A stretch of DNA of 64,000 nt from Acidobacteriaceae bacterium (GCA_027306695.1 DAHUZH010000005.1:358-64357); one strand, 5' to 3'. Numbered from the stretch's first letter, positions 7,988 to 50,866 are shown. A program made the numbers and translations. Notes: a model not told the origin generated them from the letters alone.

Positions 7988-8016
7988 TTGACACGGACTC
8001 GAAATCTCTCTACATT
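7988..8016 (+). promoter_or_regulatory. Candidate sigma70-like promoter (TTGACA-17 nt-TACATT)
   Basis: ttgaca at 7988-7993, a 17-nt spacer, then tacatt at 8011-8016, in an AT-rich spacer ~170 nt upstream of ATG 8187. Acidobacterial promoter consensus is poorly defined, so this is weak. Confidence 0.3.
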
Positions 8017-8186
8017 AATTTTGTTTTCATAGGTTTTCAGCCTAAATAACGGTCGGATTCCCCCTCCCGCTGGTTTCTTAACTAGATTGACGCCTAACCC
8101 ACATGAGATGCACAACAGCGCAAGGTCTCGCCGGAACGGATTGCACACCAGAATCCGCCGGGAAAAACCTCGGGAGTTATATTCAA

Positions 8187-16038: not shown

Positions 16039-16115
16039 GAAACAAAAACTTCACATTGGCCGCTCTCCAATGGCCATGCCGAATACCAATGAAAAAAAGG
16101 AGAAAAATAATTATG

Positions 16116-16144
16116 TTGACACTGCGGATGCTAGGCGCGAGACT
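16116..16144 (+). promoter_or_regulatory. Candidate promoter for the TBDR-peptidase array (TTGACA-17 nt-GAGACT)
   Basis: Perfect -35 at 16116-16121. The -10 is weak (only A2, A4 and T6 match). It lies ~95 nt upstream of ATG 16239. Confidence 0.25.
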
Positions 16145-16238
16145 GTTTTACATTCAACATCTCGAATGTGTAACGCATGTTTCCAAATTCCCCATCACGA
16201 AACGGCGTGTTTCGCTTGCTTTGCCAGGAGGCGCTTCA

Positions 16239-19709: not shown

Positions 19710-19728
19710 GTCTTACTTGAGGGCAGCA

Positions 19729-22700: not shown

Positions 22701-23007
22701 TGTTGGAATGCTCATCGGAGAAAGGACTTGGGGTGGCGAGGTTGGAATTACGGGATATCCGCCGCTGATCGACGGCGGAGAGGTGACTGCGCCCAGCCTC
22801 GCCTTCTTTACCAAGGAAGGCAAATGGGGAATTGAAAACGAAGGTATACCGCCTGACGTTGAGGTATCTATGGATCCAAAAGCATGGCGTCAGGGCCGCG
22901 ACCCGCAATTGGAGAAAGCAGTACAAGTGGTACTCGAAAAGCTCAAAGCCAATCCTCTGCCAAAGCCTACAGTGCCACCGTTCCCGGATTACTATAAGAC
23001 GCACTGA
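19729..23007 (+). CDS. Tricorn-protease homologue (beta-propellers + PDZ + peptidase S41 core) with Sec signal peptide
   Basis: ATG 19729 gives MNKILFCLVASLFVGMGAQAQ. 'IVFAYGGDLWRVGREGGAAIRLTSGPGDKSNPKFSPDGKLIAFTGRYDGNPNVYVM' plus repeated 'SPAWSPDGKSIAYFS' / 'NPAWSPDSRWIVY' blades. C-terminal 'VIVDDRFNSGGQAADYI' is S41-like. ~1092 aa. Confidence 0.85.
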   Translation: MNKILFCLVASLFVGMGAQAQNEKPLLMQQPTLNATRIVFAYGGDLWRVGREGGAAIRLTSGPGDKSNPKFSPDGKLIAFTGRYDGNPNVYVMPAEGGQPRQLTYSPGWDIVEGWTPDGQNVLFQSLRDSFSMRYKQLYTISIHGGFAKTLPLPMGYQASYSPDGSHLAYTPLPREIFFGGQNVLVHAYWAHYHGGLAPQVWIADLADSSVIKVPHENASDFNPMWVGNKIYFLSARTEPISLYVYDTATKKVSQAIENSGMDIMSASAGPGAIVYEQFGSLHLYDLASGHQHEVHVTIAGDFPQTRSHFEKVADHILNSGISPTGARAVFEAHGEILTVPAEKGSIRNITNSPGVADRSPAWSPDGKSIAYFSDESGEYTLDIKSQDGMGPARSIGLGKLSSYFFQLAWSPDSRKLVYTDKRLNVWYLDLDHPVPVKVDTDFYFEFGQNLNPAWSPDSRWIVYTKLLKNRLRAVFVYSLETGKAMQVTDGLSDAEHAVFDKSGKYLFFTASTNAGPASFALDMTSDPFRVTRSVYVVILRKGLPSPLAPQSDEEKVAAATKANAAQEKPGAKPKDDNGAAVQIDIDRISQRILALPIPAANYTMLQAGKAGEIFLLQTSPETHRSTLVKFSLADRQVTQLLAGIQGISVSFDGEKFLFQQGDKWGIASTAAPVKPGQGLLTMDAMQVWVAPREEWGQMYREVWRIERDYFYASNYAGLNLTDSEKEYGRYLPGIKSREDLNYLFREMLGKLSTGHTFAGGGDIPSPSPVGVGLLGADYTIENGRYRFKTVYSGENWNPELRAPLTEPGVDVNAGDYLLAVNGREIHGSDNIYRFFLNTVDQQVALKVGPNPDGSNAREVTVVPIGNEIALRGRNWIYDNLRKVDELSGGKIAYVYLPDTAEGGITSFNRYFFAQVGKQGVIVDDRFNSGGQAADYIIQYLQRTLWNYWYTPNGAVQTEPGEAIFGPKAMLINPYAGSGGDLIPWFFHHNNVGMLIGERTWGGEVGITGYPPLIDGGEVTAPSLAFFTKEGKWGIENEGIPPDVEVSMDPKAWRQGRDPQLEKAVQVVLEKLKANPLPKPTVPPFPDYYKTH

Positions 23008-25041: not shown

Positions 25042-25060
25042 AAACAGAGATCTGATTTTT

Positions 25061-27202
25061 ATGACGATTAAAAAACGGTTCCTCCGGCCTTCGACAGTGG
25101 CATGCGCGTTTCTATGCAGTGTTTCCGCAGGGGTTGTATGCCAACCCATTACCGCCAAGTCCTTCACGATTGAACAGGTCATGAGTTCTCCATTTCCTTC
25201 TGAACTTACCGCCGCGAAGCAAGGATCGACGGTGGCCTGGGTATTCAATCTGAAAGGAGCGGCAAATGTGTGGGTCGCTGCTGGCCCATCCTTTGCGCCC
25301 CATCAGGTCACGCAGTATCAGGGAGATAATGGCCAGCCCATTGCCTCCCTGCAACTTACGCCGGATGGAAAGACCGTGGTCTATGCGCGCGGCACGGAAG
25401 TGAATGCCGTGGGGCGTTCGGCCAACTCCACAACAGACCCACAGCAACCGAAACAACAAGTATGGGCGGCGGACATCGGCAAAGGCGTTCCGCGACTGCT
25501 CGGCGATATGGGTTGCGCGTATGAAGGTTGTGAAGACATCAAGATTTCTCCGAATGGAAAATGGGCCGTCTGGGCGGCCAAGCAAGAGTTATGGATCGCG
25601 CCAATCTCCGGTGCAGTCAAGGCGAAGCAACTTACCGATCTGCAAGGAGATGTTTCCACGCCGCAGTGGTCCCCGGACAGCAAACGCCTGGTGATGGATG
25701 TGAATCGCAAGGACCACAGCTTGATCGTCATCGCCGACCTTACTGGTGACAGCGTCCAGGCCTACCATTACGTCGCGCCCTCGGTCGACCGCGACATGTT
25801 TCCCCACTGGTCGCCGGACGGTAAATCCGTTATTTTTATTCGCACTCCCGGCTTTGAAGATAAGCGCCCCTTGATCCCGGTGCGCACAATCACCTGGAGT
25901 CTCTGGGTAGGAGACGCGCAGACTTATAAGGCCCAATCCATTTGGAAGAGTGGAAGCCAGTCGCGAGATTCCTTGCCGAATTTTGCTGAAACATCCCTCC
26001 ATTTTGGGGCCGGGAACCGCATCGTATTCGATTCGGAACAGGATGGATGGAGTCATCTTTATTCCATCGCGGCCACTGGTGGCGAACCTGTCCTGCTTAC
26101 TCCCGGCGACTTTTCCATTGAGGATTCGTCGCTCAGTGCCGATCGGAAAAATGTATTGTTTTCCTCCAACCAGGACGATATCGACCGCCGCCATCTGTGG
26201 AGCGTAAGCATAGCTGGCGGAAAGGCGCAGTCCGCACTGACGAAAGGCGAGACCATCGAATGGACGCCAGTAGAGACCGGAGATGGTAAGTCGGTCCTAT
26301 GTCTGGGATCGACTGCAACCACTCCAGCGCTGGTCTATCAGGTCGCAAATGGAAAGCGGGAACTTGTTACAAAAAATGCTCTGTCCAAGGATTTTCCAAG
26401 CGCCCAACTCGTAGTTCCCAAGCAAGTCATCTTTAAGAGTGAAGATGGTTATACGATTCACGGTCAGCTTTTTATGCCAAAGGGTCAGACCAAGCCGGGT
26501 CCGGGATTGATTTACACTCACGGCGGCCCACCCCGTCAAATGCTTCTGGGATTCAATTACCTGGACTACTATCACTATGCCTATGCCGAGAATGAGTATC
26601 TGGCAAGCCTCGGATTTACCGTTCTGTCCGTCAACTACCGCCTGGGGATCATGTATGGCCATGACTTCCGCATGGCGCCCAATACTGTCTGGCGTGGGGC
26701 CGCGGAATATAAAGATGTTCTGGCCGGCGCCAAGTATCTACAAAGCTTGCCTACGGTCGATCCGAACCGCATAGGTCTTTGGGGTGGTTCCTACGGAGGG
26801 TTTCTTACTGCGATGGGCCTGGCGCGCAACTCGGACATTTTCAAGGCCGGCGTCGATTATCATGGCGTGCACGATTGGGAAGTCTTTTTGCCGGACTGGG
26901 AGGAAGGCGCGACCTCCGCACCGGACTTGAAAGAAGCGAAGAAACTTGCGTGGGAATCATCTCCAGACTCTTCCGTGAGTCGCTGGAAATCTCCGGTCCT
27001 GCTCATTCAAGGAGATGATGATCGCAATGTTCCATTCAGCCAGACCGTTGACTTGGCGCAACGGTTGCGCGACAACCATGTTCCATTTGAGCAAATTGTT
27101 TACCCCGATGAAATCCACGATTTTCTTCTCTGGAAGGATTTCATCCATTCTTATCAGGCGACGGCGCAGTTCTTTCAACAGCATCTCTCTGAGGGGAAAT
27201 AA
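25061..27202 (+). CDS. Peptidase S9 (prolyl-oligopeptidase / dipeptidyl-peptidase type) with N-terminal beta-propeller
   Basis: The tracked ORF starts at 24893 inside the previous gene. ATG 25061 gives the signal peptide MTIKKRFLRPSTVACAFLCSVSAGVVC. Propeller blades ('PQWSPDSKRLV', 'PHWSPDGKSVIF'). Nucleophile elbow 'LWGGSYGGFLT', then 'LLIQGDDDRNVP' and 'YPDEIHDF' (Ser-Asp-His order of S9). Confidence 0.9.
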   Translation: MTIKKRFLRPSTVACAFLCSVSAGVVCQPITAKSFTIEQVMSSPFPSELTAAKQGSTVAWVFNLKGAANVWVAAGPSFAPHQVTQYQGDNGQPIASLQLTPDGKTVVYARGTEVNAVGRSANSTTDPQQPKQQVWAADIGKGVPRLLGDMGCAYEGCEDIKISPNGKWAVWAAKQELWIAPISGAVKAKQLTDLQGDVSTPQWSPDSKRLVMDVNRKDHSLIVIADLTGDSVQAYHYVAPSVDRDMFPHWSPDGKSVIFIRTPGFEDKRPLIPVRTITWSLWVGDAQTYKAQSIWKSGSQSRDSLPNFAETSLHFGAGNRIVFDSEQDGWSHLYSIAATGGEPVLLTPGDFSIEDSSLSADRKNVLFSSNQDDIDRRHLWSVSIAGGKAQSALTKGETIEWTPVETGDGKSVLCLGSTATTPALVYQVANGKRELVTKNALSKDFPSAQLVVPKQVIFKSEDGYTIHGQLFMPKGQTKPGPGLIYTHGGPPRQMLLGFNYLDYYHYAYAENEYLASLGFTVLSVNYRLGIMYGHDFRMAPNTVWRGAAEYKDVLAGAKYLQSLPTVDPNRIGLWGGSYGGFLTAMGLARNSDIFKAGVDYHGVHDWEVFLPDWEEGATSAPDLKEAKKLAWESSPDSSVSRWKSPVLLIQGDDDRNVPFSQTVDLAQRLRDNHVPFEQIVYPDEIHDFLLWKDFIHSYQATAQFFQQHLSEGK

Positions 27203-27208
27203 GTCCCA

Positions 27209-28126
27209 ATGACAACTCCAGACCACGATGGTTTACGGACAACCTCGCAGCTTTCCAGGCAGATTCTTACATTCATTGCATGCGTGGTTTTGTTCAGCAG
27301 CGTGCCCTATTCCTTCATCATCCATTCCGGGCATCTTGGAGTAGGCAATGGGCTGATGACTGCGCTTTTAATGTGGTGTCCGGCATTTGCCGCCTTTGCG
27401 ACTTGCGGATTTTTCAGGATCGATATCGCGAGTCTCGGATGGAACTGGCGGCCCACATGTTATGAGGTCTGGGCGTATCTGCTTCCGATTTTCTATGCCT
27501 TTCCTGTCTATGTGGTTACATGGACATTCATTAGCGGCTCCTTTCAATTTTCCGCGTTTGCTGCTTCGTCCGGTGCAGCCTTTGGATTCCCCCACTGGTC
27601 GCGAACCATTACCTTCCTGGTGGTTCTGCCCACCTATGCGTCTGTCGGCGTGATTAGCTCGATGGCTCGTACACTTGGAGAAGAGATCGGCTGGAGAGGT
27701 TTCCTGCTGCCACGGCTGGTGCAGCGTATGGGCTTTACCTTAGGTTGTTTTATAAGTGGTTGTATCTGGGCGGTGTGGCATTATCCTGCACTGCTGCTTG
27801 CCGATTACAATGCCGGTACGCCACGAATTTATGCACTGACCTGCTTCACCCTTATGGTGATAGGTGCTGCCTATGTTTTCGGCTGGTTCCGGCTCAAATC
27901 TGGCAGCTTGTGGCCTGCGGCGATGTTACATGCCAGCCACAATCTATTCATCCAGGCCATCTTCGATCGCATGACCCACCCGTCTGGCAAAGCACTGTAT
28001 GTTACGACTGAATTCGGCGCAGGATTGGCTCTGACAATCGGGGCCTGTGCATTCTATCTTTGGACTCGGCGTCGAGAAATAAACGATGCACTTCCAGGCT
28101 ATTCTGGGATGCAACCCCGAAGATAA
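27209..28126 (+). CDS. CPBP-family intramembrane glutamic endopeptidase (CAAX protease / Abi-like)
   Basis: Polytopic. Motif 1 'GEEIGWRGFLLPRL' (EExxxR), motif 2 'IWAVWHYP', motif 3 'AMLHASHNL'. Starts 6 nt after the S9 stop. Confidence 0.85.
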   Translation: MTTPDHDGLRTTSQLSRQILTFIACVVLFSSVPYSFIIHSGHLGVGNGLMTALLMWCPAFAAFATCGFFRIDIASLGWNWRPTCYEVWAYLLPIFYAFPVYVVTWTFISGSFQFSAFAASSGAAFGFPHWSRTITFLVVLPTYASVGVISSMARTLGEEIGWRGFLLPRLVQRMGFTLGCFISGCIWAVWHYPALLLADYNAGTPRIYALTCFTLMVIGAAYVFGWFRLKSGSLWPAAMLHASHNLFIQAIFDRMTHPSGKALYVTTEFGAGLALTIGACAFYLWTRRREINDALPGYSGMQPRR

Positions 28127-28460
28127 GCGGATCTTCGTCGCCGATCCAAAGGAAGGGTCGCGGCACAATCGTGGCTGCGCCGTGGATCTGACTCTTTATG
28201 ACCTGAAGACTGGAAAGCCGATCGAAATGACGGGCGTTTACGATGAAATGTCCGAGCGGTCCTATCCTTTTTATCCGGGAGGGACTTCGCTCGAGCGCTG
28301 GCATCGCGATCTTCTGCGGCATGTGATGGAGTCGGAGGGCTTTCAGGTGTACGAGTTCGAGTGGTGGCATTTCGATTACAAGGACTGGCAACATTATCCC
28401 ATTTTGAATTTGAAGTTCGAAGATTTGAATGGGGCCGCAGCAATGAAGAAAGCAGCGTGA
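28086..28460 (+). pseudogene. D-Ala-D-Ala dipeptidase (VanX/DdpX, peptidase M15D) remnant lacking the N-terminal ~75 residues
   Basis: 'FVADPKEGSRHNRGCAVDLTLYD...MTGVYDEMSERSYPF...FEWWHFDY' matches the SxHxxGxAxD zinc site and the ExxH of VanX/DdpX. The frame is closed by TAA at 28080-28082 one codon upstream of the ATG. The ORF overlaps the CPBP 3' end by 41 nt. It could still be translated as a 124-aa stub. Confidence 0.6.
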
Positions 28461-28490: not shown

Positions 28491-31400
28491 ATGACAATGA
28501 TGAAGAATAAGAAAACGATTTTGTTCTCGTTTGCAGCCCTTGCGATGTTCCTGATATGGCCGCGGAATATGCCAGCCCAGAACGTGAGCGCGTTGGCCGA
28601 GCAAATCCATCAAATCACGCACAGGCCTGTCTACGAACATTCAAGTTTCGGCGTGGAAGTGTATTCGCTGGATGAAGACAAAGTTATATACTCGCTTCGC
28701 AGCCAGCAGCTTTTCACGCCAGCCTCAACAACCAAGCTGCTGACGGAAGGCACCGCTCTTCAGCTTCTCGGTCCGGGTTACCGCTTTCACACGCGAGTCT
28801 ATCGCACGGGCCCGGTCACTCCAGAAGGCACATTGCAGGGCGATTTGGTTCTTGTAGCGAGCGGAGATCCGAATCTCTCGGGCCGGATTCAGCCAGATGG
28901 CGCGTTGGCATTCGAGAACGAAGATCATGCCTATGGCGGCAGCCCCGACACCAAAGCCGTTCCCGGCGATCCGTTGCTGGTGGTCCAGGAACTTGCGGCG
29001 CAAGTCGTAGCGCACGGCGTGAAGCGTATTGCAGGGCGTGTTCTGGTGGACGCAACGCTGTTTCCCGAAGGGGAACGGGACCTTGGGACTGGCATCGTGA
29101 TTTCACCGGTCTCAGTGAACGACAACATCGTAGACCTGACGGTTGCGCCGGGCAGCAAGGAAGGCGCCGCTGCCACGCTGCATATTTCGCCAGCAAGTAC
29201 GTATGTAACATTTGTCAACCAGATCACCACTGGGCCTGCCGGTTCAAAGCCGGATATAAATCCGATGGCGGACGTCACAAATCCAGACGGCTCGCATACT
29301 GTGACGCTGAGCGGAAAGTTCCCGCTGAACAGCCCCTCCATCCTTTATCCCTATGCGGTTCCGCAACCGAACCGCTTCGCTCAGATGGCCTTCGCCGAAG
29401 CTCTTCGTGCAAAGGGCATCCAGGTGGGAACTTCGTCGCCGAGCGGGAAGCCTGATTTCAAAACATTAGCGGCTTCTTATACGGATGGAAATGTCGTTGC
29501 GGAGCACGTCTCGCCTCCTCTCTCCGAAGAAGTCAAGGTGACCTTGAAGGTCAGCCAGAATCTGCATGCCAGCATGATGCCATTCATTCTCGGTGCCGTG
29601 CTCAGTCACAAGACGCAGGACGCGGAGCAGGCCGGTTTCGATCTCGAACACGATTTTCTCGCCAAAGCCGGTCTGGACCTGAGCGGCGCTTCGCAGGGGG
29701 ATGGAGCGGGCGGCGCGCAATCTGCCTTCTTTACGCCGGATTTCATGGTGCATTACCTCGCGTTCATGTCGAAACAGAAAGACTTCCAGCTTCTTGAAAA
29801 AGCACTTCCGATTCTTGGCCGTGACGGAACACTTTGGAATATAGAAGTAAATTCACCGGCAGCAGGACACGTCTTTGCCAAAACTGGCACCTTTGGTGCG
29901 TACGACGCGCTGAATAAGAATTTGATGCTTACCGGCAAAGGTCTGGCGGGTTACATGACAACCGCCGATGGCCGCCACGTCGCATTTGCGATCTACGCCA
30001 ATCGTGTTTCATTGTCCGCAGAGGATACGGATGCTCCTGAGAAGCTCGTGGGCCAGGCGCTGGGAAAAATTGCAGCGGCAATTTATTCCACTCCATCGGG
30101 TGAAGCAGCGCCCTTCGACGTCATCATCAAGAATGGTCACATTCTCGACGGTGCTGGAGGTACCTGGTACGCGGCCGACATTGGAATTCGTGGAAACCGC
30201 ATCGCGGCGATCGGAAAACTCGATGACGCGCAGGCCAAGAAGGTGATTGACGCAACCGGTCAAATTGTTTCGCCTGGCTTCATCGACATGCTTGGGCAGT
30301 CGGAGATGGCCCTTCTTGTCGATAACCGCTCGCTGAGCAAGCTATCGCAAGGGATCACGTCCGAGATCACGGGCGAGGGTGGCTCGATCGCGCCGCAGGA
30401 CGCAAGGACGCTTGCAGCACTCCAACCCTCCCTGGATGTCCTGCATGTCAAGGTCGACTGGACGACCCTCGATGGCTACTTCCGCCGCCTTCAACTGAAC
30501 GGGACGCCGCTCAATCTCGGCACATACGTTGGCGCGGCGCAGGTACGTGAAGCTGTGATTGGGGAGGAGGACCGCGCTCCCACGCCGGCCGAACTCGACC
30601 AGATGAAAGCTCTGGTGGCGCAGGCGATGAAGGATGGAGCGATGGGGCTTTCCACGGCATTGATTTATCCGCCCGGCTCCTATGCCAGGACGGATGAATT
30701 GATTGCGCTCGCCAAGGTTGCCGCGCAATATGGCGGCATTTACGCGACCCACATGCGCAGCGAGGGTGCAACGGAAATGCAAGCTCTCGATGAAGCGATC
30801 CGCATTGGCCATGAAGCTGGATTGCCGGTGGAGGTCTTCCACCTTAAAGCGAGTGGCAAGTCACGTTGGGGCACAATGCCACAGATTGTCGCAAAGATTC
30901 AGGCGGCGCGCGACTCCGGGCTTGACATCCGCGCCGATCAATACCCTTACCTCGCGGGCGGAACCGCACTGGCCTCCGCGCTGCCGCCGTGGGTGGCCGA
31001 CGGCGGAGTGGAGAAACTGCTCGAACGCTTGCATGACCCAAAAGTTCGTGCGCGTATCAAGCGCGAGATGGGCGCCGACCACAAAGATTGGGAAAATCTC
31101 TATTTCGACAGCGGCGGCGGATCGGGCGTACTCATTTCTGGCGTTGTCAATCCTGCGCTGAAAAAGTACAACGGCAAGACTGTGGCGCAGATGGCGAAGG
31201 CGGAAGGAAAGCCTGATCTGGATGCATTGCTCGACTTTATCCTCGCCGACAAGGCCCAGACCGGAGCGCTCTATTTCATCGCCAATGAGAAGGACTTGAC
31301 GTACGCCCTCAAGCAGCGGTGGACCTCAATTTGCCTGGATGCCAACGAGACATCACTCAATGGGCCACTCTTTGAACCGCAGAACCATCCCCGAGCGTGG

Positions 31401-31733
31401 GGAGCTTTTCCGCGCTTCCTCGGATACTACGTCCGCGACGAGCACTTGATGCCGCTTGCGGAGGCCATTCGGAAGATCACATCTATGCCGGCGCAGCGGG
31501 AACATCTGACCAACCGCGGACTCATCAAAACGGGTTTCTACGCGGATATCACGATCTTCGATCCGGCTACGATCATTGATCGCGCCACATACGCCAACCC
31601 AAATCAACTTTCAAACGGCGTGGATTACGTGTTGGTCAATGGCCAGCTTGAATACGATCACGGGAAATTGGCTGCCGCGAAAGCGGGACAGATCCTCCGC
31701 GGGCCCGGCTGGTATGGAACCTCCGGTCGCTAG
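28491..31733 (+). CDS. Fusion protein: PBP4-type D-Ala-D-Ala carboxypeptidase/endopeptidase (peptidase S13, DacB-like; aa 1-~532) + D-aminoacylase-like amidohydrolase (aa ~542-1080)
   Basis: Signal peptide MTMMKNKKTILFSFAALAMFLIW. S13 motifs 'TPASTTKLLT' (SxxK), 'VSQNLHA' (SxN) and 'FAKTGT' (KTG). Linker STPSGEAAP at 30087-30113. Then 'FDVIIKNGHILDGAGG...GNRIAAIG...SPGFID', 'GGIYATHMRSEG', 'VFHLK' and 'HPRAWGAFPRFLGYYVRD' are typical of N-acyl-D-amino-acid deacylases. Confidence 0.85.
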   Translation: MTMMKNKKTILFSFAALAMFLIWPRNMPAQNVSALAEQIHQITHRPVYEHSSFGVEVYSLDEDKVIYSLRSQQLFTPASTTKLLTEGTALQLLGPGYRFHTRVYRTGPVTPEGTLQGDLVLVASGDPNLSGRIQPDGALAFENEDHAYGGSPDTKAVPGDPLLVVQELAAQVVAHGVKRIAGRVLVDATLFPEGERDLGTGIVISPVSVNDNIVDLTVAPGSKEGAAATLHISPASTYVTFVNQITTGPAGSKPDINPMADVTNPDGSHTVTLSGKFPLNSPSILYPYAVPQPNRFAQMAFAEALRAKGIQVGTSSPSGKPDFKTLAASYTDGNVVAEHVSPPLSEEVKVTLKVSQNLHASMMPFILGAVLSHKTQDAEQAGFDLEHDFLAKAGLDLSGASQGDGAGGAQSAFFTPDFMVHYLAFMSKQKDFQLLEKALPILGRDGTLWNIEVNSPAAGHVFAKTGTFGAYDALNKNLMLTGKGLAGYMTTADGRHVAFAIYANRVSLSAEDTDAPEKLVGQALGKIAAAIYSTPSGEAAPFDVIIKNGHILDGAGGTWYAADIGIRGNRIAAIGKLDDAQAKKVIDATGQIVSPGFIDMLGQSEMALLVDNRSLSKLSQGITSEITGEGGSIAPQDARTLAALQPSLDVLHVKVDWTTLDGYFRRLQLNGTPLNLGTYVGAAQVREAVIGEEDRAPTPAELDQMKALVAQAMKDGAMGLSTALIYPPGSYARTDELIALAKVAAQYGGIYATHMRSEGATEMQALDEAIRIGHEAGLPVEVFHLKASGKSRWGTMPQIVAKIQAARDSGLDIRADQYPYLAGGTALASALPPWVADGGVEKLLERLHDPKVRARIKREMGADHKDWENLYFDSGGGSGVLISGVVNPALKKYNGKTVAQMAKAEGKPDLDALLDFILADKAQTGALYFIANEKDLTYALKQRWTSICLDANETSLNGPLFEPQNHPRAWGAFPRFLGYYVRDEHLMPLAEAIRKITSMPAQREHLTNRGLIKTGFYADITIFDPATIIDRATYANPNQLSNGVDYVLVNGQLEYDHGKLAAAKAGQILRGPGWYGTSGR

Positions 31734-31772: not shown

Positions 31773-32534
31773 TCAATCTTCATAGTGCTCCAATAGGTAG
31801 ATTCCATTTCCGTTTTCCACCCTGAATCCGGTCACAGCGAAACCCTGTGCAAACCGCTCCTGGAAATCCATTTTGAGCCGAGCCTGGACTTCCTCAGCAT
31901 GCCGCGATCCAGAGTTCTTCCAGTCCTCCATCTCCGCAGGCACAACAATCTGGACCGCATTGGAAGCAACGGTGGGAGCGCTTCCAGCAAGGGCGCTCTG
32001 GACGCGGCTTGAAGAGACCTGCCATTCTGCAACCAGGCGGTCTGTGGGAAGGCCGCCATGCAGCGGGCTTGACGTTATCCCGTAAAGATTCGGATAAAAG
32101 CGACGTATGATCGCGCCCAGACGCACGACATTGAAATAGGCGTTGCGGGGGGCCAGTGGGTCGAATGTCCATTCCATCAGAGGGACCTGCTGGGCCAGCG
32201 CTATCTCTCGTTGCTTCAGTTTCAGCAGGCGGCCCAAACCGCGATTCTGATATTCAGGGAGCACCCCGACGATATGGGAATGTAGATATCGCAGGTCGCC
32301 ACGGAACGCGGGGAACGCAAGAGCAAACCCAGCAGGTTTCGATCCATGATGGGCGAGAAGGGTATGACCGCCGACCTTGTTGGCGACGACAAAAATAGCC
32401 GAAGGAGTCACATCTTCGTCGGGATCGTCCCATATCGTGCGTTGTAAATCCATGCACTGGCGAATCCCATCGAGAGATCCGCAAACCTCGATTGAGAACT
32501 GCGCAGGAAGTGCCGGGTCTTGTATGAAGTTCAA
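31773..32534 (-). CDS. GNAT-family acyltransferase (COG3375-like), cytoplasmic
   Basis: 253 aa. 'VGVLPEYQNRGLGRLLKLKQRE' is the Q/R-x-x-G-x-G/A acyl-CoA site. TTG start at 32534 preceded by GAGGGA. No signal peptide. Confidence 0.65.
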   Translation of the reverse strand: MNFIQDPALPAQFSIEVCGSLDGIRQCMDLQRTIWDDPDEDVTPSAIFVVANKVGGHTLLAHHGSKPAGFALAFPAFRGDLRYLHSHIVGVLPEYQNRGLGRLLKLKQREIALAQQVPLMEWTFDPLAPRNAYFNVVRLGAIIRRFYPNLYGITSSPLHGGLPTDRLVAEWQVSSSRVQSALAGSAPTVASNAVQIVVPAEMEDWKNSGSRHAEEVQARLKMDFQERFAQGFAVTGFRVENGNGIYLLEHYED

Positions 32535-32706
32535 TGTCGTCCCTCACTTTGTCCAATACATGCGAATCTTTATCTATAATGATACAAATGTTTCTTATTG
32601 TCTTGGTTTGCGCAGAACAGAGACGCCATAGAAATAATTAGTAAAAAATTAATAAAACACGAAACATTCAGCGATGTGAAACATTTGATGCATTTCTCAA
32701 TACAGC

Positions 32707-34080
32707 TTACTGTCCATCCTTCATAGTCGGCCTCGGAAAGACACGAAAAAACAGATATACAGGAACACCGGTCAGAATCATCGCGATTCCAAAGCACGCA
32801 TGAATAGGATCGTTCAAAATGGTACTGAGCGAAATTCCGATCGCAGCCAAAATGAATAAGAGCGGCAGCCATGGATAGGCTGGCACGCGAAAGCTGCGTT
32901 CCAGCTCTGGTTTTCTGATCCGAAGCACGATCACGGCGGCAACCGTAAGCCCGTAGAAGATCCATGCAGTGAAGATGACATACGTGAATAGCTGCTGGAA
33001 GTTGCCCGTCAAAGTCAGCAGCGATGCCCAAACGCCCTGAACAAGAATCGCCAGAATCGGTGTATGAAAGCGCTGGCTGGTTTGACCAAGGCATCGAAAG
33101 AAGATGCCATCGCGGGCCATGGCGTAATAGACGCGCGGCCCAGTAAGGACCATGCCATTCATTGAACCCAGAATAGAAGTAAGAATCAGGATCGAGATCA
33201 GCACCGTCGTTCCCATGCCGTAGGCAACCTGGATTGCGGTGGCGGCTGCATGGTCCGTACCTCGGATTGCGAGGGGCGTTAAGACAGAGTAATAGGCGAT
33301 ATTCATCAGGACGTAAATCGCCGCGACAATCGCCGTTCCCAGGAACAGGCTCTGGGGCAGGTCGCGTTTCGCAGAGCGAAACTCGCTTGCAGTAAATGAA
33401 ACGACATGCCATCCTTCATACGCCCACAATACCGCGACCAGAGCCGCCCCAAAAGGAAGTAAAGAGTGCGATGTAGGCATGGTCGGAGGAAAGCTGGCTT
33501 GCAGCAAGTGAACGTGTCCGCGCCAGAGTAAGAGTACGAAAAGCAGGGCCAATCCTGCCAATTTGCTGACTGTGCTTACGTTCTGCACCAGCTTGCCGAG
33601 GCGGACCCCTAAGCAATTCACTCCTGTCAGCAGAAGGATGCAGGCAATGGCTGTAATTTTCTGCCCGGCGACGGTGAGCGGAAACAGGCGCGAAAGATAA
33701 AGACTGAAACCGACTGCTAAGGTTGCAATGCTGCCGGACTGGATCATGGATAGAAGGCCCCAGCCATAGAGAAAAGCTGGTAGTCTGCCAAATGCATGTC
33801 GCAAGTAGACATACAGTCCGCCTGCTCCGGGATAAATAGAACCTAGTTCGCCCAGCGACAATGCGCCGAATAAGCTGAGCAGGCCGCCAACGATCCACAC
33901 CAGCAATACCGCACTCAGCGAGCGCAGGTGCGCCGCAATCGGGCCTGGGACAAGAAATATTCCCGACCCAATCACCGTTCCAACGACTAGGGCGATACCG
34001 TCCGCACGGTTCAGTTCGCGGACTAAGCCTGTTTTTCTGTCCAGTGCCTGTGGGTCAGACTTCGTACCAACGGAATCCAT
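32707..34080 (-). CDS. APC-superfamily amino-acid permease
   Basis: 457 aa, ~12 TM. 'ALVVGTVIGSGIFLVPG' and 'AYEGWHVVSFTASEFR' are typical of amino-acid/polyamine/organocation transporters. GAGGAA lies 7 nt upstream of ATG 34080. Overlaps the RpiR stop by 26 nt. Confidence 0.9.
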   Translation of the reverse strand: MDSVGTKSDPQALDRKTGLVRELNRADGIALVVGTVIGSGIFLVPGPIAAHLRSLSAVLLVWIVGGLLSLFGALSLGELGSIYPGAGGLYVYLRHAFGRLPAFLYGWGLLSMIQSGSIATLAVGFSLYLSRLFPLTVAGQKITAIACILLLTGVNCLGVRLGKLVQNVSTVSKLAGLALLFVLLLWRGHVHLLQASFPPTMPTSHSLLPFGAALVAVLWAYEGWHVVSFTASEFRSAKRDLPQSLFLGTAIVAAIYVLMNIAYYSVLTPLAIRGTDHAAATAIQVAYGMGTTVLISILILTSILGSMNGMVLTGPRVYYAMARDGIFFRCLGQTSQRFHTPILAILVQGVWASLLTLTGNFQQLFTYVIFTAWIFYGLTVAAVIVLRIRKPELERSFRVPAYPWLPLLFILAAIGISLSTILNDPIHACFGIAMILTGVPVYLFFRVFPRPTMKDGQ

Positions 34081-34936
34081 GCTTTTGTTCCTCGGCTGCT
34101 GGGCGCAGATAGTTCAGCGTACGTTCGCGATCGTAATTGCCAAACGCGACTAAGATCACGTTCGCGAGCGCGATCGGCGCAACGTAGGAGGCGGTGAACG
34201 ATCCGCTTTCAACCGAGGACAAGAAAAATTCGTCGGTAAACTGGGCGATAGGAGAAATATAGGTGTCCGTGATGCCCACGCAATATGCGCCATTCTGCCG
34301 GGCTATCTGCAGACCCTCGATGGTCTGGCGCAGCCCCCGGCGAAAGCTGATGGCGATCACGAGGTCCTTGCGCCCGAGGGTCCGAGTCACATGCATTGTT
34401 CGCCCGGTGGTTGTGGCGATGAGCACGGGGAGACCAAGCAATGTCATCTGATATTCCATGTAGTGGACGAGGTTCGCGGCAAAATCCCCACCAAGGATGA
34501 GAATGCGCCGCGCCGAATGGATGCGCTTCGCGAGAAGGGTGATCCGGGATGGATCGAGGCTGTTGCGGAGCGCTGCCAGGTTTTTAAGGTCTTGGTCCAG
34601 GCAATCGCGTATGTGAGAGGGGATGCTGCCGTCCTTCGCGACGCTTGCCTGCATTCCTTCTAAAGATGTGGCATTGGCGATCGATAGGTCGTGCAGATAG
34701 TTTTGGAAAGAACGGTAGCCGTCAAAACCCAACTGCTGCACAATTCTCACAGTTGTAGCTGGGTCCGTACCTAATCGTTGCGCGGCGGCACGAACACTGA
34801 GCAGGACAAACTCACGCGGATTCTCAAGCACTGGCCGGATGATCTCCTGCCGACGTGGGCTAAGTTGGGCGATCTGGAGGGTGAGCCTGCCGACGGGGAC
34901 CGCATGGTTCTGGCGCGTATTGGGCTTCTTTTGCAT
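34055..34936 (-). CDS. MurR/RpiR-family transcriptional regulator (HTH_6 + SIS domain)
   Basis: 'LSVRAAAQRLGTDPATTVRIVQQLGFDGYRSFQNYL' is the RpiR HTH. 'RRILILGGDFAANLVHYMEYQMTLLGLPV...DLVIAISF' is a SIS phosphosugar-binding fold. Confidence 0.9.
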   Translation of the reverse strand: MQKKPNTRQNHAVPVGRLTLQIAQLSPRRQEIIRPVLENPREFVLLSVRAAAQRLGTDPATTVRIVQQLGFDGYRSFQNYLHDLSIANATSLEGMQASVAKDGSIPSHIRDCLDQDLKNLAALRNSLDPSRITLLAKRIHSARRILILGGDFAANLVHYMEYQMTLLGLPVLIATTTGRTMHVTRTLGRKDLVIAISFRRGLRQTIEGLQIARQNGAYCVGITDTYISPIAQFTDEFFLSSVESGSFTASYVAPIALANVILVAFGNYDRERTLNYLRPAAEEQKHGFRWYEV

Positions 34937-35215: not shown

Positions 35216-36943
35216 ATGTACATTCGACCCACTTATCGAAACAGTGTCCTCCGAGTCCTTGGCATGGCCGTGGCCCTTGCGCCATATCTGTGCGCAACGC
35301 CATCCGTCGCCGCAAATCCGCAGCGTATTTCCTCGATAGCAGCGAAGCAGCCGATGTACGACATCGTAATACGCAACGGCAGGGTCCTGGATGGAGCGGG
35401 CAATCCATGGATTCACGCCGACGTTGCTATCTCCAACGGCCATTTCGTCAAGATCGGACGCATCGCAGGAAAGGGCAAACGGGAGATCGACGCCACGGGC
35501 GATTATGTTACGCCAGGCTGGATCGACATGATGGACCAGTCGGGAGAGGTGCTGCTCAAGAACGGACTGGCCGACAATAAATTGCGAGAGGGTGTGACCA
35601 CCGCGATTTCGGGGGAAGGCGGCACGCCGGTCCCTGCGGAAAAGATCCCAGAATATTTTGCGCAGCTTCAACGACAAGGGACCAGCCTGAACTTCGGCTG
35701 TTACTACAGTGAAGCGCAGGCGCGCGTTGCCGTACTGGGTTATGTGGACCGCAAACCCACGGTTGCGGAACTGGATCGCATGAAGGGCCTGATGGCCACA
35801 GCCATGCAAGGCGGAGCGATGGGCATGACGACGGCGCTCATCTATCCACCATCCAGCTTTGCCACGACCGATGAATTGATCGCAATGGCCAAGGTCGCCG
35901 GGCAGTATGGTGGCATCTACGCCAGTCATATGCGCGATGAAGGCAAAGGCGAGCTACAGGCAGTCGATGAACTCATTGAGATCGCGGACAAGGGACATTT
36001 GCCGGCAGAAATCTTCCATCTGAAAGTCGCCTATCAGCCCGACTGGGGAAAAACCATGCAGGAGATAGGCCAGCATGTTGCCGCAGCACGTGCGCGCGGA
36101 GTGGAGGTCGCTGGCGATCTCTACGTGTACACGGCAGGCGGCACTGGCCTCGAGGCCACAATTCCATCCTGGGCGCAAGAAGGTGGAGTCGCTGCGCTGA
36201 AGAAACGCCTCCGCGATCCTGTCATCCGCGCCCGCCTTAAACAGGAACAAAAGACCGGATCGCCCGGCTGGTGGAACGTCATCGAGGCTTCCGGGGGATG
36301 GGATGGAATCGTCCTGGTGAATGCCGCCAATCCAGCCAACGAGAAGTATGAGGGCAAAACCATGACGGAAGTCGCGAAGGAAATGGGCACAGACCCCGCC
36401 GATGCGGCCTTCGATTTAGTGGAGCAAGGCCAGTCCCGGGTGTTGGCAATCTATCACATGATGGGTGAGCAGGACATCGACATCGCACTGCGTTTCCCAT
36501 GGACCAGTATTGGCAGCGATGCGGGTAGCTCGGCCATTGCTGGCGGGGATGATGCACTCGGGCTTCCTCACCCGCGAGCTTATGGTAATTTTCCTCGCGT
36601 GATTGCGCGTTATGTAAAGGAAGAACACGTCCTCACGCTGGAAGATGCGATTCGTAAAATGACTTCATGGCCTGCGGAGCGCATGCGCTTGAATGGACGC
36701 GGCGTCATTCGCCAAGGCGATTGGGCGGACGTCACGATCTTCAATTACGACAAAATCCAGGACCGCTCCACGTATGCGCAGCCGGACCTGTACCCCACGG
36801 GAATTGATTACGTGCTGGTTAATGGCCAGGTAGTCGTCGATCAGGGAAAACACACCGGAGCGAAACCAGGAATGGTGCTGTATGGACCAGGCCATTCTCC
36901 CAATCGTTTGCCCAAAGCGACTGAGAATCGGAAGAGTAGATAG
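35216..36943 (+). CDS. Exported D-aminoacylase-like amidohydrolase (N-acyl-D-amino-acid deacylase family), paralogue 2
   Basis: GGAG lies 7 nt upstream of ATG 35216. Signal-like N-terminus. 'YDIVIRNGRVLDGAGNPW...TPGWIDMMDQSG', 'GGIYASHMRDEG', 'IFHLKV', 'LPHPRAYGNFPRVIARYV'. ~50% identical by eye to the C-terminal half of the fusion. Confidence 0.85.
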   Translation: MYIRPTYRNSVLRVLGMAVALAPYLCATPSVAANPQRISSIAAKQPMYDIVIRNGRVLDGAGNPWIHADVAISNGHFVKIGRIAGKGKREIDATGDYVTPGWIDMMDQSGEVLLKNGLADNKLREGVTTAISGEGGTPVPAEKIPEYFAQLQRQGTSLNFGCYYSEAQARVAVLGYVDRKPTVAELDRMKGLMATAMQGGAMGMTTALIYPPSSFATTDELIAMAKVAGQYGGIYASHMRDEGKGELQAVDELIEIADKGHLPAEIFHLKVAYQPDWGKTMQEIGQHVAAARARGVEVAGDLYVYTAGGTGLEATIPSWAQEGGVAALKKRLRDPVIRARLKQEQKTGSPGWWNVIEASGGWDGIVLVNAANPANEKYEGKTMTEVAKEMGTDPADAAFDLVEQGQSRVLAIYHMMGEQDIDIALRFPWTSIGSDAGSSAIAGGDDALGLPHPRAYGNFPRVIARYVKEEHVLTLEDAIRKMTSWPAERMRLNGRGVIRQGDWADVTIFNYDKIQDRSTYAQPDLYPTGIDYVLVNGQVVVDQGKHTGAKPGMVLYGPGHSPNRLPKATENRKSR

Positions 36944-43987: not shown

Positions 43988-45709
43988 CTACAATTTTCCA
44001 GCCTGTTGCTTGTTGGGGACATATCCCTGTCCGCGCAATACCTTCCCCGGCAGCGCCCCGGTCATTTTTCCTTGGTCGATTACCGGCACACCGTTTATAA
44101 GCACATAATCCATCCCTTGGGAAAGCTGATTCGGTTTTTCGTAAGTGGCCATATCGCGAATAGTATTAGGATCAAAAATCACAATGTCCGCCCACATGCC
44201 CGTCTTCAATACGCCACGGTCTGTAAACCGCATGCGCTGCGCTGGCAGGGCGGAAAATTTACGGATCGCGTCCTCCAGGGTCAATTTGTGTTCTTCACGC
44301 ACGTACTTCCGCAAAATGCGTGGATAGGTCCCGTACGCTCGCGGATGTGGATGGTTCTGTCCAAGGATGCCTTCCGGCGAAATACCCTCCTCGTCAGTGT
44401 CGATCGAGACCCATGGTTGTTGCAAGGCCAGTGTTACATCTGGTTGCGACATTCCAAAGACAGCCACAGTGGTCGCGGCCTTGTCTTGAATCAATAAGTC
44501 GAACAGGGTATCCAGTGGGTCTTTCCCCCATATCCTCGCTATCTGCGCGAGGGTTTTTCCTTGTAGAGGAGCCAGCTTTGGGTTTTCCAGGCTACAGATC
44601 AGAACAGCATCTGGGCCGGGAATTTCTTGCCATTCGTTATCCCATGTCGTGGTGTCAGTCAGGAGGTCCTTGCGGATGTGCGCGCGTGTTGTGGGGTCCT
44701 GTAAGCGTGCAAGCAGTTTTGCATCGCCACCATCGTGGGCCCAGGGAGGAATGAACGCGGCCAGGCCGTTCGACCACGCAGTGTAGGCATAAGTATCGGC
44801 GGTCACATCCACTCCGCGAGCACGCGCGGCATCGACCTTTGCGACGACCTCTGGCATGCGGCCCCAGTTTTCTTTTCCGGCCACCTTGATGTGCCATATC
44901 TCGACGGGAATGTGAGCCTCACTCCCGATGTGCAGGGCCTCATCAATCGCAGGCAGTACGGAGTTGGATTCGTCGCGCATGTGTGTCGCGTAAATGCCAC
45001 CGAACTTTGAGGCCTCGGCCGCCATCGCAATCAGCTCGCTGGTTTTGGCATAGGGGGCCGGTGGATATTGAAGCGCGCTGGAGATGCCCACCGCTCCATC
45101 GCGCATCGCATCATCGACGAGCGACTTCATCTGTTCCAACTGTGCTGGAGTTGGCTGTTTATCGTCTTCGCCGAGCACCATGCGTCGCACCTGCGTCGCG
45201 CCAACGTAGCTTGCAAAGTTGTTCCCGATGCCTTGTTTTTCCAAACGCGCAAAGTATTGCCGAAATGTTCGCCAGTCTGGAGTAATGCCCAAGTGCTGAT
45301 AAGTCATTCGATTGGACTGAATAATAGCGTCGTTCAGTGGCGCGGCAGAGTCGCCTTCCCCAGTCACCTGCGTTGTAATGCCTTGGTAAATCTTTGAAGG
45401 GAGGCGCGGATCGACCAAGATTGTTTCTTCCGATTGCCCCAACATGTCAATAAATCCAGGTGCGACAACCTGTTCGTGCGCGTCGATCGTGCGTTTGCGC
45501 GTAGCCGCTGTCAGATTTCCTATGGCGGCGATCCGACCGGCCCGAATCCCCATGTCTCCTGAGTACCAGGGCGACCCGGTTCCATCGATGATGTGGCCAT
45601 GAGTGATTACGATATCGAAGGTCTGTGCGGAGCACCAGACGGATGCACTACCCATGCAAACTGCAAACAGTAGGGTAGGGAACAGCGGGCGTAGTTTTAG
45701 AAAGTTCAT
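43988..45709 (-). CDS. Exported D-aminoacylase-like amidohydrolase, paralogue 3
   Basis: Signal peptide MNFLKLRPLFPTLLFAVCMGSASVWCSAQ. 'FDIVITHGHIIDGTGSPW...APGFIDMLGQSE', 'GGIYATHMRDES', 'IWHIKV', 'HPHPRAYGTYPRILRKYV'. Confidence 0.85.
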   Translation of the reverse strand: MNFLKLRPLFPTLLFAVCMGSASVWCSAQTFDIVITHGHIIDGTGSPWYSGDMGIRAGRIAAIGNLTAATRKRTIDAHEQVVAPGFIDMLGQSEETILVDPRLPSKIYQGITTQVTGEGDSAAPLNDAIIQSNRMTYQHLGITPDWRTFRQYFARLEKQGIGNNFASYVGATQVRRMVLGEDDKQPTPAQLEQMKSLVDDAMRDGAVGISSALQYPPAPYAKTSELIAMAAEASKFGGIYATHMRDESNSVLPAIDEALHIGSEAHIPVEIWHIKVAGKENWGRMPEVVAKVDAARARGVDVTADTYAYTAWSNGLAAFIPPWAHDGGDAKLLARLQDPTTRAHIRKDLLTDTTTWDNEWQEIPGPDAVLICSLENPKLAPLQGKTLAQIARIWGKDPLDTLFDLLIQDKAATTVAVFGMSQPDVTLALQQPWVSIDTDEEGISPEGILGQNHPHPRAYGTYPRILRKYVREEHKLTLEDAIRKFSALPAQRMRFTDRGVLKTGMWADIVIFDPNTIRDMATYEKPNQLSQGMDYVLINGVPVIDQGKMTGALPGKVLRGQGYVPNKQQAGKL

Positions 45710-50645: not shown

Positions 50646-50866
50646 TTTCTTGCGACCGCTAAAAACAGTGTGTAGCTGTTGCAGAAATGCAAGCAATCAC
50701 ATGCTTTGAACGGTTATCCGTTTAAATCTTGCAAAAGAATTGAAGCGCACATTTTTTCAAGGTTTGTGTAAGCGGCACAGCAATAAATGGAGACGCAGAG
50801 CTATAAGGGAAAACGTTACCCCGGCGTGCGACTGTATCCCAACTTATGTTTTCGGAGGCAATCTTT

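Follow-up and report, generated by a model that had tools for sequence, protein, structure and literature searches.

The gene considered here lies in a 64,000-nucleotide stretch of DNA from an Acidobacteriaceae bacterium (GCA_027306695.1 DAHUZH010000005.1:358-64357; hereafter the window) and is a single ORF on the plus strand (28491..31733), with an ATG start and encoding 1080 aa plus stop. Pfam detects two families in it, Peptidase_S13 over residues 35-511 (214 bits) and Amidohydro_3 over residues 584-1053 (74 bits), and the two modules are joined by the linker STPSGEAAP (residues 533-541, 30087..30113). The protein starts with a predicted Sec signal peptide (residues 1-29, 28491..28577, MTMMKNKKTILFSFAALAMFLIWPRNMPA) in which three Lys are followed by ILFSFAALAMFL and then by MPA|QN, with a presumed cleavage site after MPA. 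The hydrophobic 12-mer of this leader has a mean KD of 2.57, AF2 pLDDT is below 50 for residues 1-30, and the typical n/h/c pattern predicts a secreted (periplasmic) protein. ORF call, Pfam and motif positions, together with this leader pattern, agree with the preliminary description of one 1080-aa ORF carrying STTK, SQN and KTG behind a signal peptide, and the nine-residue linker it reported is likewise found, at the same nucleotides, by ORF translation and orthologue alignment.

The N-terminal half (residues 35-511, 28593..30023) is a PBP4/DacB-type DD-peptidase module, which scores far above the cut-off of 22.8 bits for PF02113 and reaches 175.3 bits with the NCBIfam PBP4 equivalog TIGR00666 (cut-off 107.8). 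Its SxxK motif S79-T-T-K82 (28725..28736) provides the nucleophile Ser79, and the SxN and KTG motifs are S355-Q-N357 (29553..29561) and K464-T-G466 (29880..29888); all 122 orthologues have S79, K82, S355, N357, K464 and G466, and 119 of them have T465. PDB sequence matches are PBP4a (1W5D), R39 (1W79) and E. coli PBP4 (2EX2), and Foldseek finds the three-domain PBP4 fold (TMt 0.81 to R39 and PBP4a, 0.74-0.82 to the E. coli and H. influenzae PBP4), with an AF2 core pLDDT of mostly 80-95. The module has the three-domain fold (TMt 0.77-0.82), a predicted signal peptide and the SxxK/SxN/KTG motifs in common with E. coli DacB, B. subtilis PBP4a and Actinomadura R39 (MEROPS S13), although identity to these enzymes is only ~20-27%. 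Where R39 and E. coli PBP4 have the Arg of their DGSGLSR motif, the alignment shows a variable position (DGAGGAQS in the fusion), and no characterised S13 enzyme is known to carry a counterpart of the 540-residue C-terminal amidohydrolase.

This second module (residues 542-1075, 30114..31715) is D-aminoacylase-like and belongs to a Cys-less clade. Its PDB sequence matches are 1M7J (E ~1e-83; 9.7e-84) and 3GIP (E 2e-69 to 1.6e-68), Foldseek gives TMt 0.82-0.86 to 9GV8, 9G5M and 1M7J, and the (β/α)8 barrel, β-sandwich and insertion domain of D-aminoacylases are all present. The score with NCBIfam PRK09061 is 213.6 bits, below the cut-off of 340, as are those of two predicted secreted stand-alone paralogues in the window (197 and 215 bits). 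One of these (35216..36943, plus strand), which is divergent from an RpiR-family gene described below, is 47% identical to the fused domain and has an MDQ / E-G signature; the other (43988..45709, minus strand) is 49% identical and has the same MLGQSE / GEG signature as the fusion. FDVIIKNG, at the start of the fused domain, aligns directly after the N-terminal hydrophobic leaders of both, just as had been noted. The further point that the PBP4 module stands in place of the amidohydrolase's signal peptide is correct: stand-alone orthologues of 66-78% identity have leaders of their own, which end where the fused domain begins.

That the amidohydrolase domain is complete, as first described, is true of its length and fold but not of its metal signature. 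The HxH motif after β-strand 1 (His67 and His69, in the canonical D-S-H67-T-H69-D-D) is missing from the sequence GFID-M-L-G-Q-S-E, the degenerate site being D599-M-L601-G-Q603-S-E605 (30285..30305); none of its seven residues, Leu601 and Gln603 included, varies among the 122 orthologues. The β-site of classical enzymes (Cys96, His220 and His250) is only partly retained, with His754 (30750..30752) and His784 (30840..30842) equivalent to the two His and each invariant (122/122), while Cys96 is replaced by Gly630. Cys was found at this position in 0/130 clade representatives. Residues E629-G630 (30375..30380) align to Asn95-Cys96 of the A. faecalis D-aminoacylase, so that Glu629, present in 121/122 orthologues, corresponds to Asn95, one position before the lost ligand rather than to the ligand itself. 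Among 119 clade representatives, HxH loss covaries with Glu at 629 (44 versus 1 and 11 versus 63; Fisher p 5e-21, uncorrected for phylogeny), making Glu629 a candidate replacement metal ligand. Asp950 (31338..31340), the equivalent of catalytic Asp366, is found in 122/122 orthologues. The anchors for the amide and α-carboxylate, structurally defined in the D-aminoacylase family as Tyr192, Lys252, Tyr283 and Arg377 (PMC12017989), are also retained: Tyr726, Tyr818 and Arg968 in 122/122 orthologues, and Lys786, the α-carboxylate anchor two residues after His784, in 121/122 (one Arg). The equivalent of Ser289 is Gly824, at a position where the contacts made by the Ser of PpOngB are mostly main-chain (PMC12017989). 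An insertion peculiar to the clade and made up mainly of helices occupies the lid/gate region (~residues 829-893, 30975..31169; 65 query versus 21 target residues between aligned blocks, AF2 helices 833-879), and Tyr818 is 132 aa from Asp950, compared with 83 aa in 1M7J. AlphaFold pLDDT falls below 50 in the remodelled active-site loops 598-604, 613-631 and 951-963.

Since the HxH and Cys ligands are absent, the alignments indicate that this half is not simply classifiable as a D-aminoacylase and that its activity is not to be taken for granted. The classical enzymes rank first among its matches in both sequence and structure, and it has kept their pair of β-site His, their catalytic Asp and the Tyr/Lys/Tyr/Arg anchors. 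It differs from them by having L-G-Q instead of HxH, Gly instead of Cys, a Glu one position earlier, an extra lid insertion of ~45-50 residues and a predicted secreted rather than cytoplasmic location. The Cys-less D-acylase Gox1177 reportedly also cleaves L-Xaa-D-Xaa dipeptides (a finding attributed to Cummings, 2009). Gox1177, Microbacterium natoriense and Streptomyces enzymes make up 'cluster B' of the D-acylases, which are active on N-acyl-D-amino acids despite lacking the Cys (PMC12149444), and the present clade resembles them in combining D-acylase homology with the absence of the bridging Cys, a likeness judged by the published definition. A mechanistic analogue might be the subtype IV NagA of E. 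coli and V. cholerae, a one-metal, β-mononuclear deacylase that in E. coli has an active Glu/His/His centre with QxN replacing HxH (PMC6016474, PMC12017989), although NagA belongs to family CE9, acts on GlcNAc-6-P and takes its Glu from another sequence context, so that the likeness is confined to the inferred metal centre. HxH loss is not automatically tolerated, since mutation of either HxH His abolishes activity in PpOngB, a Cys/His/His enzyme (PMC12017989), and an HxH to QxN change killed a mycobacterial NagA (PMC6016474).

Full-length orthologues of the fusion (n=122, 64-95% identity; at least 120 protein clusters) have P/A/S/G-rich linkers of ~9 to ~55 residues, and the same in-frame fusion occurs in ~53 species-level Acidobacteriota genomes (48 complete and 5 truncated loci in species-representative assemblies), which come from independent projects (JGI, ENA, NCBI, Logan). 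Both halves are under strong purifying selection (dN/dS 0.11-0.13 for the S13 half and 0.078 for the amidohydrolase half), and no composition break was found at their junction. The architecture had initially been presented as not known from the literature; no paper describing a PBP4-amidohydrolase fusion was indeed found, but it is far from rare, being widespread in Acidobacteriota MAGs under automatic names. It is thus an uncharacterised variant architecture assembled from known families. The same amidohydrolase clade is also found fused to PF00144 (4 cases), to the class-A β-lactamase-like Beta-lactamase2 (2 cases), to M15, to M19 and to Amidase_3 (MurNAc-L-Ala amidase), and the S13 fusion is known in both orders, the reverse one in Verrucomicrobia and from an HxH-retaining subclade. 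These fusions to other peptidoglycan and D-Ala-D-Ala enzymes are independent and recurrent. Since proteins with and without the fusion are intermingled in the tree, fusion is not essential for function. Some MAGs carry two copies of the fusion, or one fused and one unfused copy. With a pTM of only 0.62, the AF2 model does not hold the two domains in a set arrangement from which channelling could be deduced.

Immediately upstream, on the plus strand, is a truncated remnant (124 aa, 28086..28460; Pfam positions 107-187 of 199 only) of a Peptidase_M15 D-Ala-D-Ala dipeptidase gene, which is 90% identical to aa 681-787 of an 819-aa PF00144+M15 protein in a related locus (L001), the synteny break being at window position 28102. 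In 19/48 loci the fusion is directly preceded by a gene for such a dipeptidase in the same orientation; the other 29 have none. On the minus strand downstream are genes for a GNAT acetyltransferase (31773..32534), which recurs beside the fusion in relatives (L011, L015, L016 and L048), for an amino-acid permease that is a recurrent member of the cassette (32707..34080) and for an RpiR/MurR-family regulator (34055..34936), identified by its HTH_6 and SIS domains. A 57-61% identical RpiR gene is found upstream of the M15-fusion pair in ~16 loci, and an RpiR match of any kind lies within 3.5 kb of the fusion in 20/48. The window also contains TonB-type barrel, tricorn/S41, S9 and PF00144 genes, and the gene pair of L001 has a TonB-type barrel immediately before it. 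The scores of the PF00144 proteins here fall well short of all β-lactamase cut-offs, and these proteins also show a likeness to AmpH and D-aminopeptidase.

Taken together, these features point, with about even odds in our judgement, to a secreted periplasmic bifunctional hydrolase acting on D-amino-acid-ended peptides, of which the stem peptides of peptidoglycan are the most likely. A role in taking stem peptides apart fits the upstream D-Ala-D-Ala dipeptidase, the recurrent fusions of the clade and the invariant catalytic and anchor residues in both halves; the truncation of the M15 gene in this genome and its absence from 29/48 loci count against it. In such a scheme, the S13 module would use Ser79 to remove the terminal D-Ala from D-Ala-D-Ala-ended peptides and/or to open D-Ala-mDAP cross-links, giving products that have one D-amino acid at the C-terminus, its α-carboxylate free, and would thus chemically be N-acyl-D-amino acids. 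The tethered amidohydrolase would then grip this carboxylate via Lys786, Tyr818 and Arg968, Tyr726 would polarise the scissile amide together with one divalent metal ion, for which His754, His784 and probably Glu629 would be the ligands, and Asp950 would act as general base for cutting the next amide bond, with release of a further D-residue. The metal centre would be Glu/His/His, β-mononuclear and devoid of HxH, as in E. coli NagA, instead of the Cys/His/His of classical D-aminoacylases. The pathway would most likely serve to scavenge exogenous cell-wall debris rather than to shape the cell's own wall, a choice that rests on gene neighbourhood only and is favoured because TonB-type outer-membrane barrels, other peptidases, the amino-acid permease and the RpiR/MurR-type regulator are nearby. 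A broader and more tentative extension, which we would hold as possible though rather doubtful, is that the Cys-less D-aminoacylase-like amidohydrolases are periplasmic carboxypeptidases that free D-amino acids from stem peptides by means of a Glu/His/His single-metal centre new to the family, and that they do so within a dedicated system for using peptidoglycan peptides (necromass) in Acidobacteriota, Verrucomicrobia and Planctomycetota, comprising PBP4, PF00144, M15 and M19 modules, TonB-type importers, permease and RpiR/MurR regulator, of which the PBP4 fusion would be the most integrated form.

S13/PBP4 enzymes are classically autolytic or remodelling, and the fusion might instead be a housekeeping PBP4 variant that opens cross-links during maturation of the cell's own sacculus, its amidohydrolase providing L,D-carboxypeptidase-like trimming for remodelling or recycling. 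This would fit the match of the S13 half to the PBP4 equivalog model, the wide retention of the fusion across the whole lineage and its association with an RpiR/MurR-type regulator. It is nevertheless unlikely in view of the catabolic neighbourhood (TonB-type barrels, including the one directly before the gene pair in L001, S9, tricorn/S41, permease and extra secreted paralogues), the absence of adjacent cell-division or wall-synthesis genes and the existence of MAGs with two fusion copies or fused plus unfused copies, a pattern to be expected of accessory catabolic genes rather than of this role. It is quite improbable that the amidohydrolase half is non-catalytic and serves the PBP4 domain by binding D-amino acids or peptides, by targeting it or by regulating it. 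Replacement of 3/6 canonical metal/catalytic positions, the dead HxH mutants of related enzymes (PMC12017989, PMC6016474) and the low AlphaFold confidence at the active-site loops would all be expected of a pseudoenzyme, but there is little or no variation at His754, His784, Asp950 and the substrate anchors or at the substituted residues M600-L-G-Q-S-E605 and Glu629, and dN/dS is lower than in the S13 half. Moreover, the same signature is found in abundant secreted stand-alone proteins, which would have no partner to regulate, and the tight covariation of HxH loss with Glu gain resembles ligand replacement, not decay.

β-Lactamase folds, both class-A-like and PF00144 (class-C-like), are found among the partners of the clade, as is an M19 dipeptidase. 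This could also suggest β-lactam catabolism or detoxification, in which the penicillin-recognising module would open or capture the β-lactam and the amidohydrolase would deacylate the side chain of the opened compound, formally an N-acyl-D-amino acid. This chemistry is plausible by our own reasoning, but we regard such a role as very improbable: β-lactams act on S13 PBPs as inhibitors and not as substrates that are turned over, the M15 D-Ala-D-Ala dipeptidase and the Amidase_3 MurNAc-L-Ala amidase found as partners or neighbours are peptidoglycan-specific, and the scores of the PF00144 proteins and their AmpH/D-aminopeptidase likeness speak against β-lactamases. Finally, an artefactual joining of two neighbouring genes through a frameshift or misassembly at the linker, an a-priori concern of the preliminary description for which no support was found, is excluded for practical purposes because the in-frame junction recurs in 122 proteins and ~53 assemblies from independent projects, with linkers of differing length and without a break in composition.

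D-aminoacylase-family enzymes are known chiefly as industrial catalysts for N-acetyl-D-amino acids. The repeated, independent fusion of this clade to penicillin-recognising and D-Ala-D-Ala enzymes, to which the occurrence of the S13 fusion in both orders and in two phyla adds, leads to the testable hypothesis that the natural substrates of the family are D-amino-acid-terminated cell-wall peptides. The amidohydrolase half also suggests that this well-studied superfamily includes a kind of metal site not described before, in which HxH and Cys are both gone and a Glu is conserved. Acidobacteriota are a dominant group of bacteria in soil, and much of the nitrogen in microbial necromass is that of peptidoglycan; if this reading is true, a secreted system dedicated to peptidoglycan D-peptides would help explain how Acidobacteriota feed. 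Even if only the ordinary reading is true, the analysis corrects the annotation of hundreds of entries named 'PBP4' or 'N-acyl-D-amino-acid deacylase'.

The analysis shows the architecture of what is predicted to be a secreted two-module protein, with its PBP4 motifs intact and an amidohydrolase site that is conserved though remodelled. The fusion is encoded in a single frame from an ATG start (28491..31733, + strand; 1080 aa), with continuous composition across the domain junction. Pfam places Peptidase_S13 at residues 35-511 (214 bits) and Amidohydro_3 at residues 584-1053 (74 bits), the PBP4 equivalog TIGR00666 of NCBIfam is passed (175 bits, cut-off 107.8), and the S13 motifs were read as STTK79-82, SQN355-357 and KTG464-466, bearing out the preliminary description of a 1080-aa ORF with all three. 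A signal peptide is likewise predicted ahead of the S13 module, the N-terminus (MTMMKNKK-TILFSFAALAMFLIW-PRNMPA/QN), as read from the sequence, having the charge/hydrophobic/small-residue pattern of the Sec type. By each sequence and fold criterion applied, this half is a member of the S13/PBP4 family. The modules are joined by the linker STPSGEAAP, which lies where it had been reported (nt 30087-30113, + strand; residues 533-541), and the second begins with FDVIIKNG. These residues align with the first ones past the hydrophobic leaders of both stand-alone amidohydrolase paralogues in the window (43988..45709, − strand, 49% identity; 35216..36943, + strand, 47% identity), in agreement with the earlier claim that the module starts where the paralogues start after their leaders. 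A Foldseek search found no solved structure covering both halves.

Among 5.8 billion proteins searched, at least 120 clusters (90% identity) of 1016-1152-aa proteins span the whole query at 64-95% identity, all of them with PF02113 and PF07969. Their named sources are Acidobacteriaceae, Ca. Acidiferrales/Acidiferrum, Sulfotelmatobacter and Terriglobia MAGs, and their automatic names are PBP4 or N-acyl-D-amino-acid deacylase. The complete fusion was found in 48 loci of a species-representative genome collection, five more being interrupted by contig ends or frameshifts. In 122 orthologues the linker is P/A/S/G-rich and varies from ~9 to ~55 residues, and the flanking domains are always in frame despite this variation, which excludes the frameshift or stop in the linker that had been raised as a possible refutation. 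Recurrence in at least 120 clusters, in these orthologues and in independent loci likewise rules out an assembly artefact. Clustering at 50% identity leaves a single representative (P0121), so the same-order fusion is one tight clade. The possibility that the architecture might be already common and characterised proved right in its first part only: common it is, but literature searches on the fusion, on Gox1177 and on the Microbacterium D-aminoacylase found no paper on it. The fusion is a new combination of known families, common in uncultured members of one phylum, and it gives a useful hint as to the natural substrates of its amidohydrolase family.

Since the window protein had no exact match in the assembly collection, gene context was drawn from relatives. 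In the locus of an 85%-identical relative (L001), the upstream gene (5545-8004 of that locus) overlaps the start of the fusion by 4 nt and encodes a secreted 819-aa protein made of PF00144, a middle domain and Peptidase_M15, the PF00144 part being AmpH / D-aminopeptidase-like and the M15 part a D-Ala-D-Ala dipeptidase; a TonB-type barrel precedes this gene. In 19 of the 48 fusion loci, an M15 gene is the immediate upstream neighbour and shares the strand of the fusion; a PF00144 domain is included in seven of these. The PF00144 + M15 fusion also lies directly upstream in the relatives' loci L011, L014, L029, L031 and L072, and other loci have shorter upstream versions without the PF00144 part. 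An RpiR/MurR-family match occurs within 3.5 kb in 20/48 fusion loci (in ~16 loci it is a 57-61% identical same-strand upstream gene), several loci also have an amino-acid permease and a GNAT gene, and unfused orthologues of the amidohydrolase, 66-78% identical, have a neighbourhood of the same kind. The cassette is rearranged in the window, where GNAT, permease and RpiR genes (31773-34936, − strand) lie just downstream of the fusion on the opposite strand, the second secreted amidohydrolase (35216-36943) is divergent from the RpiR gene, and only the last 124 codons of the M15 gene are left (28086-28460, + strand), a remnant that matches aa 681-787 of the L001 819-aa protein at 90% identity. 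Because DNA homology to L001 begins abruptly at 28102, a synteny break at the end of a CAAX/Rce1-like ORF (27209-28126), a rearrangement seems to have cut short the M15 partner gene in this genome. When 27-35.4 kb was scanned for promoters and terminators, matches were fewer than in shuffled sequence and none was useful.

In the scenario that we propose, the S13 module would trim D-Ala-D-Ala termini and/or open D-Ala-mDAP cross-links, yielding products that would end in one D-residue with a free carboxylate and would thus formally be N-acyl-D-amino acids. The tethered amidohydrolase would take these as substrates and remove the next residue, free D-Ala-D-Ala would be handled by the M15 enzyme, and the permease would take up the resulting products. 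An AlphaFold model of the full fusion protein (pTM 0.62) decides neither domain-domain channelling nor ligation by Glu629. With this low pTM and the variable linker, we argue for simple tethering, which would bring co-localisation, 1:1 stoichiometry and the economy of one signal peptide, rather than for a fixed channel. The foremost alternative, a housekeeping role in wall remodelling, is possible though rather doubtful.

The C-terminal half was aligned to the D-aminoacylase of A. faecalis (1M7J, E 1e-83), whose numbering is used for the reference residues, and to Bb3285 (3GIP). The preliminary description had called this a complete D-aminoacylase-like domain, which holds for its start and its homology but not for the canonical metal site: GFID-S-H67-T-H69-D-D has become GFID-M-L601-G-Q603-S-E and T-G-N95-C96-G has become T-G-E629-G630-G, so that three canonical positions (both His of the HxH and Cys96) are replaced, and His754, His784 and Asp950 are kept as equivalents of His220, His250 and Asp366. 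D-aminoacylases belong to subtype V of the amidohydrolases, whose defining marks are a Cys/His/His β-site and a catalytic Asp, and in PpOngB mutation of either HxH His abolished activity (PMC12017989); HxH-to-QxN swaps killed a mycobacterial NagA (PMC6016474), and 'cluster B' D-acylases are active without the bridging Cys (PMC12149444, a review). An alignment of 130 domain instances from the wider clade has Cys at the Cys96 column in 0/130. In the covariation table, which counts 119, the residue at the 629 position is not Glu (mostly Asn) in 63/74 instances with an intact HxH, and it is Glu in 44/45 of those that have lost one or both His (Fisher p 5e-21, shared ancestry ignored). We infer that the metal centre may have been rebuilt as a single-metal Glu/His/His site with no α-site. 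Caveats are that Glu629, the candidate ligand, is paired in the alignment with Asn95, not with Cys96, that the QxN swaps in NagA were not tolerated, and that AlphaFold is confident for the barrel except at loops 598-604, 613-631, 951-963 and 1000-1008 (pLDDT <50). It is these loops that would build the metal/active site, and their low confidence may reflect a shallow, low-diversity alignment or metal-dependent ordering. The lid/gate region is ~45-50 residues longer in the clade than in 1M7J (132 aa between Tyr818 and Asp950 vs 83 aa), the extra segment being helical by prediction. Overall, the C-terminal half is homologous to D-aminoacylases and would work alike, yet it lacks two of their defining features, Cys and HxH, and scores under the NCBIfam subfamily cut-off; it should be named a Cys-less D-aminoacylase-like amidohydrolase, probably related to 'cluster B', not a D-aminoacylase.

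Such substitutions could be taken for decay peculiar to the fused copy. However, both window paralogues have the same ones and many free orthologues are changed alike, and M600-L-G-Q-S-E605 is present in 122/122 orthologues and Glu629 in 121/122, so that decay is rejected. Tyr726, Tyr818 and Arg968 (122/122) and Lys786 (121/122) are equivalents of the substrate anchors Tyr192, Lys252, Tyr283 and Arg377 (A. faecalis numbering), which in the D-aminoacylase family hold the amide oxygen and the α-carboxylate (PMC12017989). In the S13 half, S79, K82, S355, N357, K464 and G466 are invariant (122/122). Alignment columns have a mean conservation of 0.76 in the S13 half and 0.83 in the amidohydrolase half, and the corresponding dN/dS values, taken against the two closest relatives, are 0.11-0.13 and 0.078; judged by these values, selection is acting on both halves. 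In view of this conservation pattern, it is improbable that the C-terminal half serves as a pseudoenzyme.

Among the best 150 of the 50%-identity representatives of the amidohydrolase clade, ~20 are multidomain proteins. Their partners are PF00144 (4), class-A-like Beta-lactamase2 (2), Peptidase_M15, Peptidase_M19, Amidase_3 (MurNAc-L-Ala amidase), Peptidase_S13 in forward order (the family of the window fusion) and in reverse order (P0226), PIG-L, PCMT, PPIase, α/β-hydrolase and tandem copies. Some of these partners would fit β-lactam catabolism, but S13, M15 and Amidase_3 do not, making it very unlikely. Representatives P0154, P0158, P0160, P0163 and P0206 have as partners M19, PCMT (protein-isoaspartate/D-aspartate O-methyltransferase), M15, a class-A-like β-lactamase and a MurNAc-L-Ala amidase; like P0226, they appear undescribed so far. 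The class-A-like β-lactamase fusion is from Planctomycetota.

P0226 represents a 54-member cluster (999 aa), in which the only member with a named taxon is from Verrucomicrobia. Since it has the reverse order and its amidohydrolase belongs to the HxH-retaining subclade, the S13/amidohydrolase pairing arose at least twice. Fused and unfused forms are interleaved in a neighbour-joining tree (no support values), which does not support a single origin of the fusion and suggests that fusion or fission happened repeatedly. On this evidence, being fused seems to be an optional refinement that is labile in evolution. Some genomes have two fusion copies, or a fused copy and a close unfused amidohydrolase (L031 and L036 in one MAG, MFD06092.bin.1.41; L044 and L068 on one contig, CAVWSS010000006.1).

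In the window, genes for envelope functions and peptide degradation are densely packed around the fusion (12910-36943). Besides the CAAX protease, permease, RpiR regulator and secreted amidohydrolase paralogue given above, this island has two PF00144 proteins (12910-14418; 23029-25041, + strand), a TonB-type barrel (16056-19709), a tricorn/S41-like protease (19717-23007), an S9 peptidase (24893-27202, + strand) and an OSBS/NSAR-type enolase-superfamily enzyme (14480-15628, − strand; TIGR01928, 343 bits vs a cut-off of 200.65). By analogy with the Geobacillus NSAR pathway, the enolase-superfamily enzyme, the GNAT adjoining the fusion (31773-32534, − strand) and the permease could form a cytoplasmic D-to-L amino-acid route of acylation, racemisation and deacylation. 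The mechanically called second PF00144 ORF and S9 ORF overlap by 149 nt; the TTG start of the latter is probably placed too far upstream, since its first ~60 residues look non-native. For the 774-aa ORF at 8103-10427 (+ strand), Pfam gave no hit at E <= 1e-5. Unrelated to the fusion, an apparent L-rhamnose utilisation cluster (54463-63848) comprises an aldolase/SDR fusion, an FGGY kinase, an isomerase-like TIM barrel, a RhaT transporter and an α-L-rhamnosidase; a further TonB-type barrel (50846-54181) lies ahead of it.
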